Notes: generated by a model not told the origin, from the letters alone. A stretch of 64,000 bases of DNA from Bacteroidetes bacterium GWE2_42_24 (GCA_001768515.1 MEOA01000010.1:64161-128160); one strand, 5' to 3'. Positions 9,325 to 48,543 are shown, counted from the first letter of the stretch. A program made the numbers and translations.

Positions 9325-10686
9325 ATGCAAAATCTTACTGAAGGCAAGGCAGGGAGCCTTATTCTCAAATTCGCCATACCAATGTTGCTTGGGAATGTCT
9401 TCATGCAAATTTATAGTGTAATTAACAGCATTGTGGTCGGGTTATTCATTGGAAAAGAGGCTCTCGCTGCAGTGGGAGCCTCTTTCCCTTTAATCTTTGC
9501 ACTGGTGAGTTTCATTATTGGAATTGGTATGGGATTCTCAATCGCCATCTCACAATACTTTGGTGCGCGCGACATAACAAAAGTTACCAGGACCATCGAC
9601 ACCATGTGGATTTTTCTGCTAGTATCATCAATAATTATTACAGTTATTGGGTTAACCTTCAGCAGACAATTGCTTGTTCTCACCGGTATTCCTGGAGATG
9701 TTCTTCCACTTGCGATACCCTATTTCAACATTAATATCATCGGGTTTATTGTGTTGTTCGCGTTCAATGGTGGGACGTCCGCCTTGAGAGGACTCGGCGA
9801 CTCCAAGACTCCCTTATATTTTCTCATTATTTCCACGCTAGTCAATATTGCCCTTGATTTGCTCTTTGTTCTGGTGTTCAAATGGGGCATAGAAGGAACA
9901 GCATGGGCTACAGTCATTGCTCAGGCCGGTGCTTTCTGTACAATGGCCATATACCTGAACCGGACGCACCAAATCATTAAAATAAACTTTCGCAGATACG
10001 TTTTCGATCGCGAAATATTCATGAAGAGTGTCAAAATTGGATTGCCTACAGGTTTCCAGCAAACATTTGTCTCTCTTGGAATGGTAGCCTTGCTCAGTAT
10101 TGTTTCCCAATTTGGGACCGTGGCTGTTGCAGCCTATACAGTCGCCACTCGCATTGACTCATTCGCTTCGATGCCGGCAATGAATTTTGCCTCCGCCTTA
10201 TCGACTTTTGTAGGTCAAAACTTAGGAGCAGGACGTGCCGACAGGGTAAGATCAGGAATGATTGCCACCTTGAAAATGACTTCTGTCATCTCCCTTTCTG
10301 TAACCATAATTGCTATCCTCTTCAGCAGGCAAATGATGGGCATCTTTACCAGAGACCCTGAGATTATAGCTATTGGAGCCGATTATCTGGTAATCGTAAG
10401 TTCGTTTTATTTGTTCTTCTCTGCCATGTTTGTTATAAGCGGTGTAATGCGTGGTGCAGGCGATACATTGATTCCGATGTTCATCACACTGCTCTCGCTC
10501 TGGCTAATCAGGATCCCTGTATCGTGGTTGTTGTCTGATGCCATAGGTATTCATGGCATTTGGTGGGGTATTCCCATAGCCTGGTTTATCGGAATGGTTG
10601 GGGCATGGTTTTACTACAAAACGGGCAGATGGAAACTAAAGGCCATCGTAAAGCATCTGTTGACTGTAGACGCTGGGGCTAAATAA
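9325..10686 (+). CDS. MATE family efflux transporter
   Basis: 453 aa with about 12 predicted TM helices and a MATE-typical N-terminus (LILKFAIPMLLGNVFMQIYSVINSIVVG). Confidence 0.85.
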   Translation: MQNLTEGKAGSLILKFAIPMLLGNVFMQIYSVINSIVVGLFIGKEALAAVGASFPLIFALVSFIIGIGMGFSIAISQYFGARDITKVTRTIDTMWIFLLVSSIIITVIGLTFSRQLLVLTGIPGDVLPLAIPYFNINIIGFIVLFAFNGGTSALRGLGDSKTPLYFLIISTLVNIALDLLFVLVFKWGIEGTAWATVIAQAGAFCTMAIYLNRTHQIIKINFRRYVFDREIFMKSVKIGLPTGFQQTFVSLGMVALLSIVSQFGTVAVAAYTVATRIDSFASMPAMNFASALSTFVGQNLGAGRADRVRSGMIATLKMTSVISLSVTIIAILFSRQMMGIFTRDPEIIAIGADYLVIVSSFYLFFSAMFVISGVMRGAGDTLIPMFITLLSLWLIRIPVSWLLSDAIGIHGIWWGIPIAWFIGMVGAWFYYKTGRWKLKAIVKHLLTVDAGAK

Positions 10687-10695
10687 CTAAATGGT

Positions 10696-11418
10696 TTATT
10701 GCCAGCCGGAAGCCAATACATCGATCAGGTGAATGGTCTTAATCGGTAAATTGTTCTTCTTTATATAGCCTTCCATGTGCATTAAACAACTCGCATCAGT
10801 ACTCACTATATAGCTTGCTCCTGTAGCAAGGGCATTCCCTACTTTCTGCTCAGCCATAGCCACAGAAATGGGTTCATGCTTTATCGTAAAGCTACCTCCA
10901 AATCCACAACAGACATCCCGCTCTTCCATCTCAACCAATTCAAGACCCTTAACTTTTGAAAGCAAAATGCGGGGTTGATCTGTAAGACCATACTCACGCT
11001 GCGCTGCACAACTATCATGAAAGGTCACCTTCTCAGGAAAAACAGCCCCGAAATCGACAACATGTGCCACATTTACCATAAAATCGGTAAACTCATAGAT
11101 ATTGCGTTTCAGTTGCTTATACTCATTATGTAAGGCCGAATTGTGAAAAAGCTGCTGGTAATAATTCCTGACATAACCTGCACACGAAGCAGAAGGACCT
11201 ACAACTGGCCGGTCGTGAGGAAAATCTTTGATAAACTTTTCTCCAATGGCTTTTGCTTCATCCATAAAGCCACTGTTAAAGGCCATCTGACCGCAACAAG
11301 TCTGGTTGGAATTATAATTAACCTTAATACCGGCCTTTTTCAGAATTTTTATCATGTTAATCCCAGTCCCGGGATATACCTGATCGATGAAACAGGGAAT
11401 GAATACGTCTACTTCCAT
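10696..11418 (-). CDS. (Fe-S)-binding oxidoreductase with two CCG domains (LutA/GlpC-like)
   Basis: 240 aa with duplicated cysteine-rich CCG motifs (CCGQMAFNSG and CCGFGGSF). No lutB/lutC partner lies next to it. Confidence 0.7.
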   Translation of the reverse strand: MEVDVFIPCFIDQVYPGTGINMIKILKKAGIKVNYNSNQTCCGQMAFNSGFMDEAKAIGEKFIKDFPHDRPVVGPSASCAGYVRNYYQQLFHNSALHNEYKQLKRNIYEFTDFMVNVAHVVDFGAVFPEKVTFHDSCAAQREYGLTDQPRILLSKVKGLELVEMEERDVCCGFGGSFTIKHEPISVAMAEQKVGNALATGASYIVSTDASCLMHMEGYIKKNNLPIKTIHLIDVLASGWQ

Positions 11419-11486
11419 GAGGCTTATAATTATTCATGCAAAGTTATCGAAATAATGAATGATATTTATTGTCAGAAAAAAATCAA

Positions 11487-12731
11487 CTATCCCAGAGTAA
11501 TACCTACCTGCTGAAGATGGTAAAAAAAACCGGGATATGACTTTCCAACAACCAGAGGATCATCAATCAAAAGAGGCTGTGTAAGCACAACAAGGGGGGC
11601 GAAAGCAAAAGCAATACGGTGGTCATCGTAAAAATCCACACTTCCGTGATGTAATCCACGATGCCGGCTGATCTCTACCGAATCATCATCAACTATCTTA
11701 AACGAGCCTCCCAGTTCAGTAATTCCTTTACACATTGCCTTCAACCGGTCGGTTTCCTTTATCCGCAGGGTATTCAGCCCTGTTATTCTTTGGGAAATAT
11801 TCAACCCGGCCAGCGTGGCAAGATAGCATGGGGCAAGATCGGGATAATCAGAAAAGTCAATGGTCGATGGAAGCATACCCACCTGCCCGGTATTAAAGAT
11901 CGTCAGGCCTGTATCAGATGATACAGTTACGACACCAAAACAGCGATAAAGATTTGTAATCTTTTCATCTCCCTGTAATCCATTCGTGGTCAAATTTTTA
12001 AAATAGATTTTAAGTGCGGGATTCAATGCCACCAGCTCATACCATGGAGCAGTAGCCGACCAATCGGCAAAACCCTGCACAGGGATACTTTTATAGAGGC
12101 CGGCACTTATTTTGATAAAATGCTCGTTTAGGTCAACTCCGATTCCGGCATCCTGCATCAACCTTGCGGTCATCTGAACGTAGGGCTCTGAAATAAGCTT
12201 CCCTTTCATTCTTATGGATATCCCCCTTTTCATGGCAGGGGCAATTAACATCAGTGCCGATACAAACTGGCTGCTGATCGTTGCCTCAACATCAACCTGC
12301 CCACCATCCAGCTTTCTGCCTGTAATCACAAGGGGTAAAGAATCATCCGGTGTCTCGCTTTCAATCAGGGCACCAAGCTGACGTAACGCATCAATCAATG
12401 GTTTCATCGGACGCTGCTGCATGCGCTCAGTCCCCCTAAGTATGAATTGGCCGTTGCAAATTGACAACAAGGCCGTCAAAAACCTGGCCACTGTTCCGGC
12501 AGCACCGCAGTCCAGGTTAAGCACGCCATCCTCTGCGCGATGAGCTGCAACCCGTTGAAGAAGTTTATTCATAACAAGCATATCTTCTGGGCTATTAACT
12601 GATATAGCATCCAACGGGTACGATTGCAAAAAACGCATGATCATGAGTCTGTTTGCAATGCTTTTTGATTCAGGAAGGTCGATAACTGCCTCCCTGATTC
12701 CAGGTTTATAAAGGAGTGGCAAATAACTCAC
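11487..12731 (-). CDS. aroA: 3-phosphoshikimate 1-carboxyvinyltransferase (EPSP synthase)
   Basis: 414 aa with an LPESKSIANR motif (LPGSKSxSNR type) and a two-domain EPSPS layout. 4-nt overlap with aroB. Confidence 0.9.
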   Translation of the reverse strand: MSYLPLLYKPGIREAVIDLPESKSIANRLMIMRFLQSYPLDAISVNSPEDMLVMNKLLQRVAAHRAEDGVLNLDCGAAGTVARFLTALLSICNGQFILRGTERMQQRPMKPLIDALRQLGALIESETPDDSLPLVITGRKLDGGQVDVEATISSQFVSALMLIAPAMKRGISIRMKGKLISEPYVQMTARLMQDAGIGVDLNEHFIKISAGLYKSIPVQGFADWSATAPWYELVALNPALKIYFKNLTTNGLQGDEKITNLYRCFGVVTVSSDTGLTIFNTGQVGMLPSTIDFSDYPDLAPCYLATLAGLNISQRITGLNTLRIKETDRLKAMCKGITELGGSFKIVDDDSVEISRHRGLHHGSVDFYDDHRIAFAFAPLVVLTQPLLIDDPLVVGKSYPGFFYHLQQVGITLG

Positions 12732-13944: not shown

Positions 13945-14280
13945 ATGGATATAAATAAGCCTGTACATATTAATTCGATGAATTTCGAAAAAGTAATCAG
14001 AAAGGGGATTGTACTCGTTGATTTCTGGGCTCCATGGTGTAGCCCCTGCCGTGCGATGGAACCAGTATTGGATGACCTGGCCTCGCATCTGGAAGGGAAA
14101 GGCCTCATCACAAAAATAAATGTCGATGAAAACCCCAGCATTTCATCGCGATACGGAATTTTTAGCATTCCAACCATGATAATTTTTCATGACGGGAAGG
14201 AATTTAGACGTTTCACGGGAGGTCAATCTTCAGAAAAATTACAGAAAATTATAACCGATCAATACAACAACACCATATGA
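13945..14280 (+). CDS. thioredoxin (atypical WCSPC active site)
   Basis: 111 aa with FWAPWCSPCR and the downstream FSIPT cis-Pro loop; thioredoxin length. Confidence 0.85.
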   Translation: MDINKPVHINSMNFEKVIRKGIVLVDFWAPWCSPCRAMEPVLDDLASHLEGKGLITKINVDENPSISSRYGIFSIPTMIIFHDGKEFRRFTGGQSSEKLQKIITDQYNNTI

Positions 14281-14495
14281 TAACAAAAGACAAGCTGAGA
14301 AAAATGTGGCCCTCGCTGGCAGGAATTGTTGCAGGCATTGCAGGAGGATACCTCTACTACATCGAAATCGGGTGTAGCAGCGGCACCTGCCCGCTCACCG
14401 GCAACCCATGGATGACTATGCTTTGGGGAGGTGTGATGGGGTACCTTGTTGGTGATATGTTTGTTAAAAAAGAGCAGGGTAAAAATCAGTCGTAA
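14277..14495 (+). CDS. small two-helix membrane protein with CSSGTC motif
   Basis: 72 aa. ATGA start/stop overlap with the thioredoxin gene. Two hydrophobic helices flank GCSSGTCPL. Confidence 0.5.
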   Translation: MITKDKLRKMWPSLAGIVAGIAGGYLYYIEIGCSSGTCPLTGNPWMTMLWGGVMGYLVGDMFVKKEQGKNQS

Positions 14496-14975
14496 AATAG
14501 CTTATAAATCAGTCTTTCCATTAACATAGCATAATGCTGGTATACTCCGGCGTCAGTTACCCGCGATGTTGAATTCAAACTTATTACTTCCAAATATCCT
14601 GTTTAAAACAACAACCAGTACAGGGCTTTTTCGTACAGCTCGCATTACTGCAATTGTTTGGCAGTAATACAGTCAATCATGATAGATAAGACTCCTGCCG
14701 GTAGTGGGTAAATGAAAGGGTATGGCATCTGCACTTAACGCCATCGTTTTCTTTTGCCGGATAGTTATATCAACCCCTTATTGCCATATTTCGACAATAT
14801 ATTGATTAAAATTCAGGATCATCAGACACACTGATGTGAAAAGCTCTGCCTGGATTGCACTAACAATCAACTATTGGATGCCGCTGGATGATAGGTCTAT
14901 ATCAATTCCGCCGACAGCCACATAGAACTATTTCATATCCTCAAATTTTAGAGCCGGTTTGCGTTAAAATCAGCA

Positions 14976-15111
14976 AAAAACCCACATTATTCTACAACAA
15001 AACAACAAATATTCAAAATACTGATTAACAGGGGTAAAATATAGTGTCGCTTCGTTGTCGCTTCGAAGCGGCTTCGAAGCGGCTTCGTATTTTTTCGAAA
15101 CGATAACGAAG
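14976..15111 (+). repeat. 136-nt non-coding element, copy A (19-mer + four 11-nt GCTTCG units)
   Basis: A hand alignment without gaps to 47968-48103 gives 105 of 136 identical positions. AAAAACCCACATTATTCTA is identical in both copies. Units tcGCTTCGttg, tcGCTTCGaag, cgGCTTCGaag and cgGCTTCGtat lie at 15047-15090. Confidence 0.8.
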
Positions 15112-15885
15112 CCATTATGAACAAGCCCCGAATGAAATATAACTTAGGTATAATTTATGTAAGAAGAAGAGAGGAGCAGTTTTTTAACCTGAAAAGTAAA
15201 ATCAGTGAGAGAGGTTTATGCTTCTTGCTCGGAAGCAAAGAAACCGGCGCCATCTGGCATAAGCTGATGGATTGATTGTTAATAAATTAATGGCAAGCAT
15301 CGGGGAATAGCTGCATGAAAAGATGCACCTTTCGTCTGTAATTTGCCAATAATTCCCACATCAAAAAAGGCTGGCTTTCAAACAGGATGAAAACAGAAAA
15401 AGTTGTGACTTATCGAATCTGAAGGGCTACGACTGGTTATCTTTGCACAGCAAAACACCTTTTGTATTCCATTCCATTACGTATTGGAACACGGACATAA
15501 CCTACTTCAGTTCCATCTGGAATATGAGACCTTATATCGATCAGTAAATATTTTCATGTTATGGTGGAGAGGAGCTTCCTGCGATAAAAACCATTACCCT
15601 TCATAACTATTGGCCTTTATACTGTTCATGCAATTCGGGGCAGAACCTCAAATAGTTAACTTGCAGAAATCAAAAAAGATATTGAACGCTAATCGATAGG
15701 CTCCAAAAGACTTCTTTGTCTTATTAGTATGATTTACATTCGGAGAAAAATCACAATATGACCTCGGAATTGACCTCAATTAAAAGTCTGATTAACTGGC
15801 AAATAAGCTTCAGGATATACGAAAAGAGGAAGGGCGATTAACCAGAAACCGGAGAGAAACAATGATGAACAGACAAAACAGTGTT

Positions 15886-16251
15886 TTATTCCTTCTGGCT
15901 GATCAACCTGAGTTCATCTTTTACTTTTTTGGGCAGCGAAGCCACAACCAGCTCGTAAGAGTGGTCAATCCATTGCATGACAATCTCATCACTTACAGAA
16001 CCGTCGATCAGGACAGTATTCCACAATCTCTTATTCATGTGATAACCAGGAGAAACACAAGCATATTGTTCACGAAGACGAATGGCAAGATCCGGGTCGC
16101 ATTTCAGGCTGATAGAAAAAGCATCTTCCAGATCGGTAAGGGCAAACATTTTATTCATTACCTTGATAACCAATGTAGTTTCATCAAAAGGGAAAGAATC
16201 GGTAGCACCGGCTTTCTGCAGGCAATAGTTATGAAAGGATTCTATATTCAT
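15886..16251 (-). CDS. MmcQ/YjbR-family protein
   Basis: 121 aa with a YjbR-like pattern (FPFDETTLVIKVMNKMFAL, GYHMNKRLWNTV, SYELV). The fully overlapping + strand ORF 15862..16266 is treated as a shadow ORF. Confidence 0.8.
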   Translation of the reverse strand: MNIESFHNYCLQKAGATDSFPFDETTLVIKVMNKMFALTDLEDAFSISLKCDPDLAIRLREQYACVSPGYHMNKRLWNTVLIDGSVSDEIVMQWIDHSYELVVASLPKKVKDELRLISQKE

Positions 16252-47296: not shown

Positions 47297-47967
47297 GTTT
47301 TATTTTGTTGGAAATTCATGCTACCAGTATTTATATACCCCCAAAAAGTCATTGCAATTCTCTTATTTCGCTCTTACAACAGTTACTTTGAGGCGATTAT
47401 TTCTTTCTGAAACACTTGTTTAGAACGCTGCAACCTTGCATACCAAATAACAATTTACTGTGCGCTTTATTGCTTTCATAGGTGAAAATCTCCGAAGATT
47501 TGCTACTCCTGTGCCCTCTATGCCGCAAGCCGGTGCCGCCTTCCGGAAAATACCTGGAATAACAGATCCACAGCCACCACAACCTGACCGGGATGATTGA
47601 TTTTGCTTTTACCAAGCCTGCTTCGCAATACCCTGTACACTCTTTCCGCTGTAACACGCTCCGGTACCAAAAAGCACTAAAAATGATATAGCAAATGAAA
47701 ATTACGCCAGTTTTCCACAGCCTGAGAAGTAAGTTACCTGTGTTGATCGGTTTATAATACCACGATCAAAAAGATGGCGCAAGGCCATTCCAGGTCATCT
47801 CTCTTGATCAGCATTCCAGCTCATGAAGTTCACCGCAATGGAAAATCATGTCTGGTCTGGCCATACAATCAATAATGGAATGCTGCCGGTTGGTCGCGTC
47901 ATCTAAACGCTATTGCCCGTGGCCTCAAACTATCAAAATCAAAGGTCAGTATGAACGAAAATATCCC

Positions 47968-48103
47968 AAAAACCCACATTATTCTAAAACAAAACACAAA
48001 ACACCGAAAATGCTGACAAACAGAGGACAAACTTAACACCCCTTCGTTCTCGCTTCGAAGTAGCTTCGAAGTAGCTTCGTCAATTTTCGAAGCAAAAACG
48101 AAG
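47968..48103 (+). repeat. 136-nt non-coding element, copy B
   Basis: Same orientation and exact length as copy A. Units ccCCTTCGttc, tcGCTTCGaag, taGCTTCGaag and taGCTTCGtca lie at 48039-48082. My reading agrees with the ORF-track translations of 47848..48036 and 47899..48132, which cross it. Confidence 0.8.
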
Positions 48104-48543
48104 AGGCTTTGGAAATACTTCGGAACAACCATAGCTTTGGTCTAACCAAATTAACTTGATGCGGGTATTCACTTTTATGGAAACCGTATACTATGATGTA
48201 TCGCTCAACCTGTATCTGATACTGTTGCGCGGAGGGAAGAGCGTGCCCGGGCTGTATAAACGGGACTCCAACCCTTAAAAAAGTATGTTTATTGAGATAT
48301 GGTATCCTGAAACACGAGAGGCCAGGAAGCGGACAAAATGGACGATGGAGTTACAAAATGATCGCCCTGAAGCCAAATTGAACAGATGTAATGAAATACG
48401 TTGTTTTCAGGAAGCGGTAATATCAAACCAGATGTAATACAGCGAAAAATGCATCCTGCAACCACCGGTAAAATTAATACGGCCGGGGAGATCAACACCA
48501 TCAGGCTCAGAAATCATAACCAGCACATCATGACTACCACAGA

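Follow-up and report, generated by a model that had tools for sequence, protein, structure and literature searches.

The DNA analysed here is a stretch of 64,000 nucleotides (nt) of Bacteroidetes bacterium GWE2_42_24 (GCA_001768515.1, MEOA01000010.1:64161-128160), referred to as the window, in which an earlier note had described an unexplained 136-nt element in two copies, A and B. Copy A (14976-15111) lies in a gap free of open reading frames (ORFs), and this gap was found to be flanked, as described, by the thioredoxin and DUF6132 genes on the left (13945-14495, plus strand) and by yjbR on the right (15886-16251, minus strand). Copy B (47968-48103, plus strand) lies in a second ORF-free gap (47658-48543) downstream of priA, with the 3' end of priA (minus strand) on one side and further minus-strand genes on the other. 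When both gaps were used as blastn queries against the window, one common block was returned, which was the 136-nt core in its two copies, 77.2% identical and ungapped (E = 1e-24). The 19-mer AAAAACCCACATTATTCTA at its start matched the window at exactly two places, 14976-14994 and 47968-47986, both on the plus strand, and this two-match outcome was obtained in 0 of 100 shuffles. The four 11-nt units tcGCTTCGttg, tcGCTTCGaag, cgGCTTCGaag and cgGCTTCGtat were confirmed at 15047-15090, and Tandem Repeats Finder reported a period of 11 with 100% match at 15045-15087 and 48052-48079. The 19-mer and the units were thus present where the earlier note had placed them. No tRNA or tmRNA was found by a scan of the window.

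The periodicity of copy A outran the four described units, and eight head-to-tail 11-nt units were counted at 15049-15136. On the left of this array, the 19-mer, which the two window copies share exactly and which hardly varies among about 30 members of the family described below, is followed by a CTGAnnnACAG motif (CTGATTAACAG, 15021-15031) that occurs in all subfamilies, also in those without the 19-mer. Between this motif and the array lies a promoter-like box of the -7 type on the minus strand (box L, 15036-15043), which reads TATATTTT with one mismatch and has the family consensus TATGTTTG. On the right of the array, a weaker -7-like box on the plus strand points rightward (box R, TAACTTAG, 15140-15147; family consensus TAACTTTG or TGACTTTG). 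The same arrangement was found around copy B, where box L (TAAGTTTG, 48028-48035, minus strand) and box R (TAGCTTTG, 48132-48139, plus strand) enclose an array at 48041-48128 with the spacer TA instead of CG. The homology of copy A to family members elsewhere exceeded the 136 nt and covered core and arms from roughly 14680 to 15480, as seen by blastn against the loci L222, L242, L250 and L262.

A profile built from copies A and B was searched with nhmmer at a cut-off of E < 1e-12 and gave 38 matches, comprising 36 unique sequences, of which 35 were full-length and one (L150) was truncated. The counting of copies, which the earlier note had proposed as a check, thus yielded 36 unique members and not a pair. 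The block order was identical throughout: CAAAA-ACCCACATTATTCTA, about 20 variable nt, CTGAnnnACAG, CAAAyATA, the array, TTTwCGAA and AACGAA. One subfamily without the 19-mer retained CTGAnnnACAG, the array and the right-hand block. When JGI metagenome contigs were scanned for two adjacent units with a non-GG spacer, 108 loci were obtained, and the whole layout was repeated in the flanks of about 40 of them. On the large contigs of a single metagenome (Ga0209319), 18 pattern-positive loci were counted, roughly one per 100 kb, a density of the same order as the two copies in the 64 kb of the window. Each member occupies an ORF-free gap of 1.1-1.5 kb between unrelated genes, which by sequence apparently encode a TonB-dependent receptor, an Rhs-type protein, IspH, a histidine kinase, a XerD-like recombinase and others, and no recurrent neighbour gene or functional theme was found within 4 kb of the 36 members. 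The hosts belong to an uncultured Bacteroidota or Bacteroidales-like lineage and were sampled in aquifer and sediment metagenomes; by its PriA and YjbR proteins, the window falls among such organisms too. A search of the literature with the palindrome and with 11-bp repeats in Bacteroidetes returned nothing relevant, only primers, and the family was previously undescribed.

Five independent assemblies (L005, L006, L008, L009 and L150) break in or beside the array, at the equivalents of window positions of about 15092, 15110 and 48052, which is most simply explained by k-mers common to many copies of the family. L150 apparently has at least one unit more than copy B. The metagenome scan also brought up a second repeat family at L165, L176, L180, L191 and L236 (also L159 and L182), in which GGTTCGAAGCT/GCTTCGAAGCW arrays stand between inverted copies of AAATTCCATTACGCTAGC and which is unrelated to the Bacteroidota family.

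The exact 18-mer AAAACCCACATTATTCTA was searched in 185,579 species-representative genomes, and the 10 matches, about the number expected by chance, included no family member. As no family-like context was found among these species representatives, the host lineage would be narrow or unrepresented there. Two of the matches (L010, 3666-3683; L011, 678-695) lie at the 5' end of type II-C-like cas2 genes, where they encode RIMWVL, and were treated as a coding coincidence; several of the others fall inside genes as well. At L013 (4900-5440; Chitinophagaceae, JADLEN010000305.1), the 18-mer is the last of three repeats of about 21 nt (CCAAAACCYACATATT...), preceded by about 300 nt of G/T-poor, A/C-rich sequence and directly followed by about ten tandem 22-nt units (TGTAGCGCCTCTTTATA), an iteron-like layout. 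The 23-mer AAAACCCACATTATTCTACAACA, which is the start of copy A, occurs in Flavobacteriaceae at L014 (7426-7448), L015 (5111-5133, minus strand) and L017 (3665-3687, minus strand). There it is non-coding and follows a conserved 117-aa ORF at a distance of about 20-30 nt; in L015, tRNA-Phe is some 320 nt away. The 23-mer may form one half of a terminator-like hairpin, and the probability of a chance match is roughly 1%.

The insertion behaviour of the element was followed at the junction of DUF6132 and yjbR in relatives with perfectly conserved gene order around yjbR. The gap between the two genes was 13 nt in L265 and L266 (YjbR 68% identical to that of the window), 17 nt in L269 (73%), 29 nt in L267 and L268 (72%) and 52 nt in L270 (76%), whereas it was 828 nt in L263 (87%), where it contains a family core oriented alike, and reached 1390 nt in the window, where the whole insert spans 14496-15885. 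This polymorphism between short junctions in four relatives and long ones in L263 and the window at an orthologous site indicated that the family behaves as inserted DNA. The core of L263 is 77% identical to copy A. Its arms gave local alignment scores of 14 and 17 against those of copy A, which is the level of shuffled sequences, and they were unrelated to the arms of every other member too. In L150, which is the ortholog of copy B downstream of priA (PriA 90% identical), the arms are homologous (score 177), and the identity was about 95% in the core versus about 75% in the flanks. Because the core outlasts the arms in both comparisons, it is the constrained part, and the arms are fast-evolving or of mixed origin. 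These results together established the 136 nt as the conserved centre of a lineage-specific, ORF-less family of insertions, about 0.8-1.4 kb long, which is dispersed over intergenic sites and insertion-polymorphic.

Along the element, column entropy was lowest at 14976-15180 and rose steadily outward. The arms split into subfamilies and are mosaic, with modules shuffled between members. A 126-nt module of the right arm of copy A (15355-15480) recurs in the left arm of L195 (8863-8986), which indicates that arm modules can occupy either side of the core. The conservation showed no period-3 signal across the element, the six reading frames were equally 'conserved', and the arms contain 1-nt indels. 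No Pfam match above cutoff was found in the six-frame translation of the right arm at the copy A locus, and no ORF is conserved from the conserved ATGs, as its length from the same ATG varied from 2 to 52 codons among 12 members. The 52-codon ORF that had been noticed next to copy A contains a 47-codon gene-finder call (15132-15275, plus strand) that was itself the sole match among 5.8 billion proteins; the adjacent ORF was judged spurious and confined to this metagenome-assembled genome, and the earlier view that no ORF explains the element stood. A protein-coding gene or pseudogene was rejected, there being neither a conserved frame nor homologs. The reverse complement of the 19-mer (14966-14986, minus strand) holds the ATG of a mini-ORF, which reads MWVFC* in copy A, runs for 26 codons in copy B and has seven codons (MWVFxxI*) in eight of the 12 long members, with TGA, TAG or TAA as the stop at one position; in two Flavobacteriaceae loci it reads MWVF*. 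The stop is retained in only about half of the members, so that this possible mini-ORF is supported no better than nucleotide conservation alone would predict.

The array was found to be one continuous 11-nt lattice, in which, from left to right, GCTTCG units give way to the palindrome GCTTCGAAGC and this in turn to CGAA(G/A)C units, so that TTCGAA-type motifs recur along its whole length and both boxes face units of the same orientation. Between members, array length changes only by whole units, from 6 to 11. In copy A a phase slip of 1 nt was seen at a T-run near 15093. Each box starts exactly 11 nt after a CGAA unit when read on its own strand, and box R mirrors box L in this respect. The distance between the two boxes, measured from alignment columns alone, was 85 nt in 10 members, 96 nt in 14 (copy A among this class), 107 nt in six and 118 nt in five, so that all 35 members fitted n x 11 + 8. 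The outward promoter-like boxes are thereby locked to the lattice. From the 19-mer to box L, the spacer measures 40 or 41 nt, so 1-nt indels are tolerated there, beside the strict array. The 11-bp phasing that the earlier note had pointed out is therefore real and looks functionally constrained, and the strict spacing next to an indel-tolerant spacer favours the proposal of the same note that the units bind protein on one face of the DNA.

Box L was the sole conserved TAnnTTTG position across about 1 kb; it lies on the minus strand and appears on the plus strand as CAAAyATA adjoining the first unit. It was exact in 17 of 36 members when counted in fixed-position bins, exact or with one mismatch in 11 of the 12 long members, and scored 5 or 6 of 6 in 28 of 35. 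In the window, TAnnTTTG occurred within 150 nt upstream of 12 of the 27 genes with a free upstream region, compared with 4% of coding windows, an enrichment of about 11-fold, and this motif marks promoters in this genome. Both boxes of copy B match TAnnTTTG exactly, in agreement with the -7 element of Bacteroidota sigma-A promoters. The absence of a TAnnTTTG box, which had been reported for the element, was borne out for the plus strand and not for the minus strand, where box L is exact in copy B and has one mismatch in copy A.

The reading that we prefer, although we hold it with somewhat less than even confidence, sees in the core a promoter/operator module that acts at the DNA level in both directions and occupies the middle of an ORF-less insertion element. 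Its 8-11 units of 11 bp would be enclosed by two Bacteroidota -7 boxes that point outward, box L being on the minus and box R on the plus strand. As each 11-bp unit carries one TTCG/CGAA (TTCGAA) motif, all motifs and both boxes would share one face of the helix, where a putative protein might assemble on the array by cooperative binding and govern the two promoters. The presence of TTCG rather than the usual TTTG at -33 would be as expected for factor-dependent promoters. The leftward transcript is predicted to start a few bases beyond box L and to run through CTGTnnnTCAG and a G/U-rich stretch into UAGAAUAAUGUGGGUUUUU, the reverse complement of the 19-mer, which would accordingly lie within the RNA. 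What the earlier note had delimited as an element would then consist of the left promoter, roughly the first 60 nt of the RNA made from it, and six array units.

Several observations weigh against this module. The TTTG expected at -33 (19-21 nt upstream) is present at neither box, the unit there being TTCG. Box R is degenerate: TAnnTTTG is matched exactly by only about 5 of 35 members, and the 'ACT' that it conserves at positions 3-5 is foreign to the -7 consensus. The subfamily without the 19-mer (L215, L255, L240, L178, L164 and L218) also has no good box L, and the model does not account for the near-invariance of the 19-mer. No candidate for a binding protein came to light, and both promoters and their transcripts are predicted from motifs alone. 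The 11-nt steps in length could partly come from repeat slippage rather than from selection. In addition, a small hairpin encloses box R (15126-15160), with stems ATGA.G/CTCAT or TACCCTG/CAGGGTA depending on the subfamily, and its many G.U pairs on the plus strand hint at an RNA or single-strand feature outside the model. Separately, ideas of an invertible promoter or a contingency locus were discarded, because five assemblies from different samples carry copy A without a difference.

The main rival explanation, to which we give roughly one chance in a handful, is that the core serves as a site of mobilisation or recombination, the 19-mer and the phased TTCGAA units being bound by a recombinase, a transposase or a relaxase-like protein that is encoded elsewhere in the genome and would copy or move the element, with the boxes secondary or coincidental. 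The clear insertion polymorphism at a syntenic site agrees with it, as does the position of the conservation peak in the core, because the part recognised by an enzyme is usually the most conserved part of selfish elements. The window and L263 share the insertion site and the orientation of the core and have unrelated arms, which suggests repeated targeting or turnover, and the shuffling of modules between mosaic arms points the same way. However, self-blastn of five long members detected no terminal inverted repeats, only the central palindromic array, and the conserved part is central and not terminal as in insertion sequences (ISs) and miniature inverted-repeat transposable elements (MITEs). 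No target-site duplication could be defined, as the C-termini of the flanking genes differ at the empty sites and the insertion point could not be placed to the nucleotide; the ends of homology within subfamilies agreed only approximately. A match to the end of a catalogued IS, MITE or integrative element, which the earlier note had named as refuting, did not appear, and blastn against the plasmid and phage collections gave none. No recurrent transposase or integrase gene lies nearby, the single XerD-like gene near L206 looks like a housekeeping gene, and the identity of copy A in the five assemblies gave no sign of ongoing movement.

A bolder reading, which we would rate as rather improbable, makes the element a new class of ORF-less selfish DNA in Bacteroidota, whose functional unit would not be the ends and would instead be a central nucleoprotein platform formed by the 19-mer, the phased TTCGAA array and the outward promoters. 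A protein of the host or of the element would assemble on this platform, which would both drive transcription into adjacent DNA and mark the element for copying or for the capture of flanking DNA. Such a platform would explain why sister lineages carry the same core with unrelated arms at an identical site.

Whether the core acts as RNA was approached through the hairpins that the earlier note had proposed for the single strand. The folding energy was far below that of shuffled sequences (z = -4.4 for copy A and -4.1 for copy B), although a low folding energy is expected of any tandem palindrome. When the proposed structure was scored on 18 gap-free members, 15 of the 22 pairs were invariant, and the four variable flanking pairs were unpaired in 4-12 of the 18 sequences. 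The covariation score was 0.025 against a shuffled mean of 0.029, and 345 of 500 shuffles scored at least as high. The complementarity of the left and right halves was 0.57-0.64 within elements versus 0.58-0.64 between elements. The hairpins were therefore not upheld and turned out to be invariant palindromes without covariation, and a long hairpin or cruciform model was rejected together with them, the complementarity within an element being no higher than across elements. Selection acts on the motifs and their spacing and not on pairing as such, and the lack of covariation speaks for DNA to which protein binds in phase rather than for stems in an RNA. No Rfam family matched the 64-kb window at the gathering score, and permissive searches around both copies gave chance-level hits only (E 3-8), in keeping with the claim that the element carries no Rfam motif. 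Among 12 other family loci, the only Rfam match was an unrelated flavin mononucleotide (FMN) riboswitch outside the element (104 bits; L222, 3320-3442, plus strand), which lies just beyond the left arm and upstream of an 857-aa TonB-dependent-receptor-like ORF. RNAalifold gave only weak consensus structures for both arms on both strands.

A plus-strand small RNA, in which the 19-mer and the A/C-rich stretch would form a single-stranded 5' seed and the hairpin units with the T-run (GCTTCGTATTTTTT) an intrinsic terminator or a protein-binding repeat, is in our judgement unlikely. The low folding energies would suit it, its layout would be like that of a typical trans-acting small RNA, a simple scan found terminator-like stems followed by a T-run at 15057-15092, and the G.U pairs in the hairpin just downstream favour the plus strand. 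The scan for sigma-70 promoters and terminators, which is unsuited to Bacteroidota promoters, gave only terminator-like matches driven by the palindromes. Against a small RNA, most members have no plus-strand TAnnTTTG upstream, and the stems show no covariation and their flanking pairs are often broken. Furthermore, the minimum-free-energy structures differ between copies A and B, in many members the T-run falls within the loop of the final hairpin, tandem palindromes fold at low energy anyway, and no Rfam family was matched.

An iteron origin or a type II partition centromere, left from or used by integrated plasmids or phages, had been suggested as a lead by the earlier note, and we now consider it very unlikely. 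The array is of the tandem iteron kind (6-11 units of 11 nt), its head-to-tail units stand beside a promoter as in parC of plasmid R1, and an A+T-rich stretch adjoins it. Phage arrays of GCTTCGAAGGG also have the same 9-nt core and 11-nt period and lie in an origin-in-initiator arrangement. This lead nevertheless fails on the context of the family, because the copies are dispersed by the dozen over chromosomes, with the 18 pattern-positive loci of a single metagenome as an example, and no rep, par or phage gene was found within 4 kb of any of the 36 members. The low copy number and adjacent rep gene of an iteron origin were not seen. No ORF occurs for 0.4-0.8 kb to either side, and no recurrent actin-like or ribbon-helix-helix gene, as expected of a type II centromere, was seen. 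The family gave no match by blastn in distant mode against 72,556 plasmids and 50,697 phages and was absent from the IMG/VR scans, in which the 16-mer matches were unrelated, and the 19-mer matches a DnaA box at just 6 of 9 positions. The small RNA, the origin or centromere and the neutral relic considered next are all less likely than the mobilisation-site rival.

A functionless relic duplication or product of repeat slippage, with which the fast-evolving and at orthologous sites sometimes wholly unrelated arms would agree and which could also yield 11-nt steps, is effectively refuted by conservation, since the core of orthologs is 95% conserved against about 75% in the flanks, 36 unique members retain the block order and a near-invariant 19-mer, and not one out-of-phase indel occurs across 85-118 nt in 35 diverged members; the many copies with a conserved core are the opposite of the relic outcome that the earlier note had named as its refutation.

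If the promoter/operator module that we prefer is true, the genomes of an uncultured Bacteroidota lineage would contain dozens of portable, gene-free control modules, each of which sets two outward promoters and a protein-binding array between unrelated genes. Antisense and read-through transcription would arise from these modules, which would also amount to a hidden regulon and serve as a marker of genome dynamics. The spacing of the promoter-like boxes, quantised exactly in steps of 11 bp, is unusually clean comparative evidence for a constraint on the helical face. The family also accounts for recurrent contig breaks in the assemblies of these genomes and for the 'gene deserts' of 1 kb into which annotation pipelines put spurious small ORFs.

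The family was compared with known systems of repeated DNA. A CRISPR array was rejected, because the units are 11 nt long with 2-5 nt of variable sequence and have no spacers, whereas CRISPR repeats of 23-50 nt alternate with unique spacers and are accompanied by cas genes; the earlier note had likewise recognised no CRISPR repeat. MITEs and non-autonomous ISs share the ORF-less multicopy state and the presence/absence polymorphism at a syntenic site, and differ from the family, which has no terminal inverted repeats, a central peak of conservation and a length of about 1 kb.

The arrays of GCTTCGAAGGG were found on 113 IMG/VR contigs (L037-L149) as 2-4 tandem units with an 11-nt period inside a DnaD-like helicase-loader gene (phrog_1701). 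In one example (L059), they belong to 9728-10585 and 10919-11902 (both plus strand), and a gene for a DnaB-like helicase follows. At a distance of about 250 nt there is often a second array in inverted orientation, next to (CTGTTC)n hexamer repeats. These loci look like a lambda-style origin embedded in an initiator gene. They have the 9-nt core GCTTCGAAG and the 11-nt period in common with the family array, but unlike it they lie in coding sequence, have a GG spacer and are without the 19-mer and the -7 boxes. The common 9-nt core could reflect either related binding proteins or convergence, and whether one DNA-binding fold stands behind both is a testable question.

Several phased operator arrays resemble the core in its logic. 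In parC of plasmid R1, 11-bp iterons bound by ParR flank the parMR promoter, and other ribbon-helix-helix proteins bind comparable arrays, MetJ at metboxes with palindromic units and omega at heptads. The family shares with these the head-to-tail period of one turn and some ten units abutting promoter elements, but it has no parM, parR or other partner gene adjacent, it exists in dozens of chromosomal copies, its unit sequence is unrelated, and its boxes are two and divergent rather than one. In tandem operators of the PhoB/OmpR type, such as the pho boxes and the F and C sites of OmpR, repeats of 10-11 bp likewise stand against the -10-equivalent, and cover the -35-equivalent, and several units continue upstream along one face of the helix. 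In contrast to them, the family has a partly palindromic TTCGAA motif that serves two opposite boxes, no linked response regulator, and units that are not upstream of a protein-coding gene.

In its behaviour, the family appears most like the modular mosaic intergenic repeats. The pneumococcal BOX element has the form boxA-(boxB)n-boxC, with a boxB of 45 nt and a proposed RNA structure, and the REP units of BIME/REP clusters are about 35 nt long. These repeats have the same dispersed, lineage-specific and non-coding intergenic habit, with many copies per genome and no gene of their own, and the same plan of fixed end modules around variable internal tandem units. The family is distinguished from them by an internal unit of 11 nt, an insert of about 1 kb and phased promoter-like boxes in the centre; it has no sequence similarity to either, a BOX-type RNA structure is unsupported, and no RAYT-type gene was seen. 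It is best filed as a dispersed mosaic non-coding repeat with a phased core, for which an operator/promoter function is predicted from the sequence.

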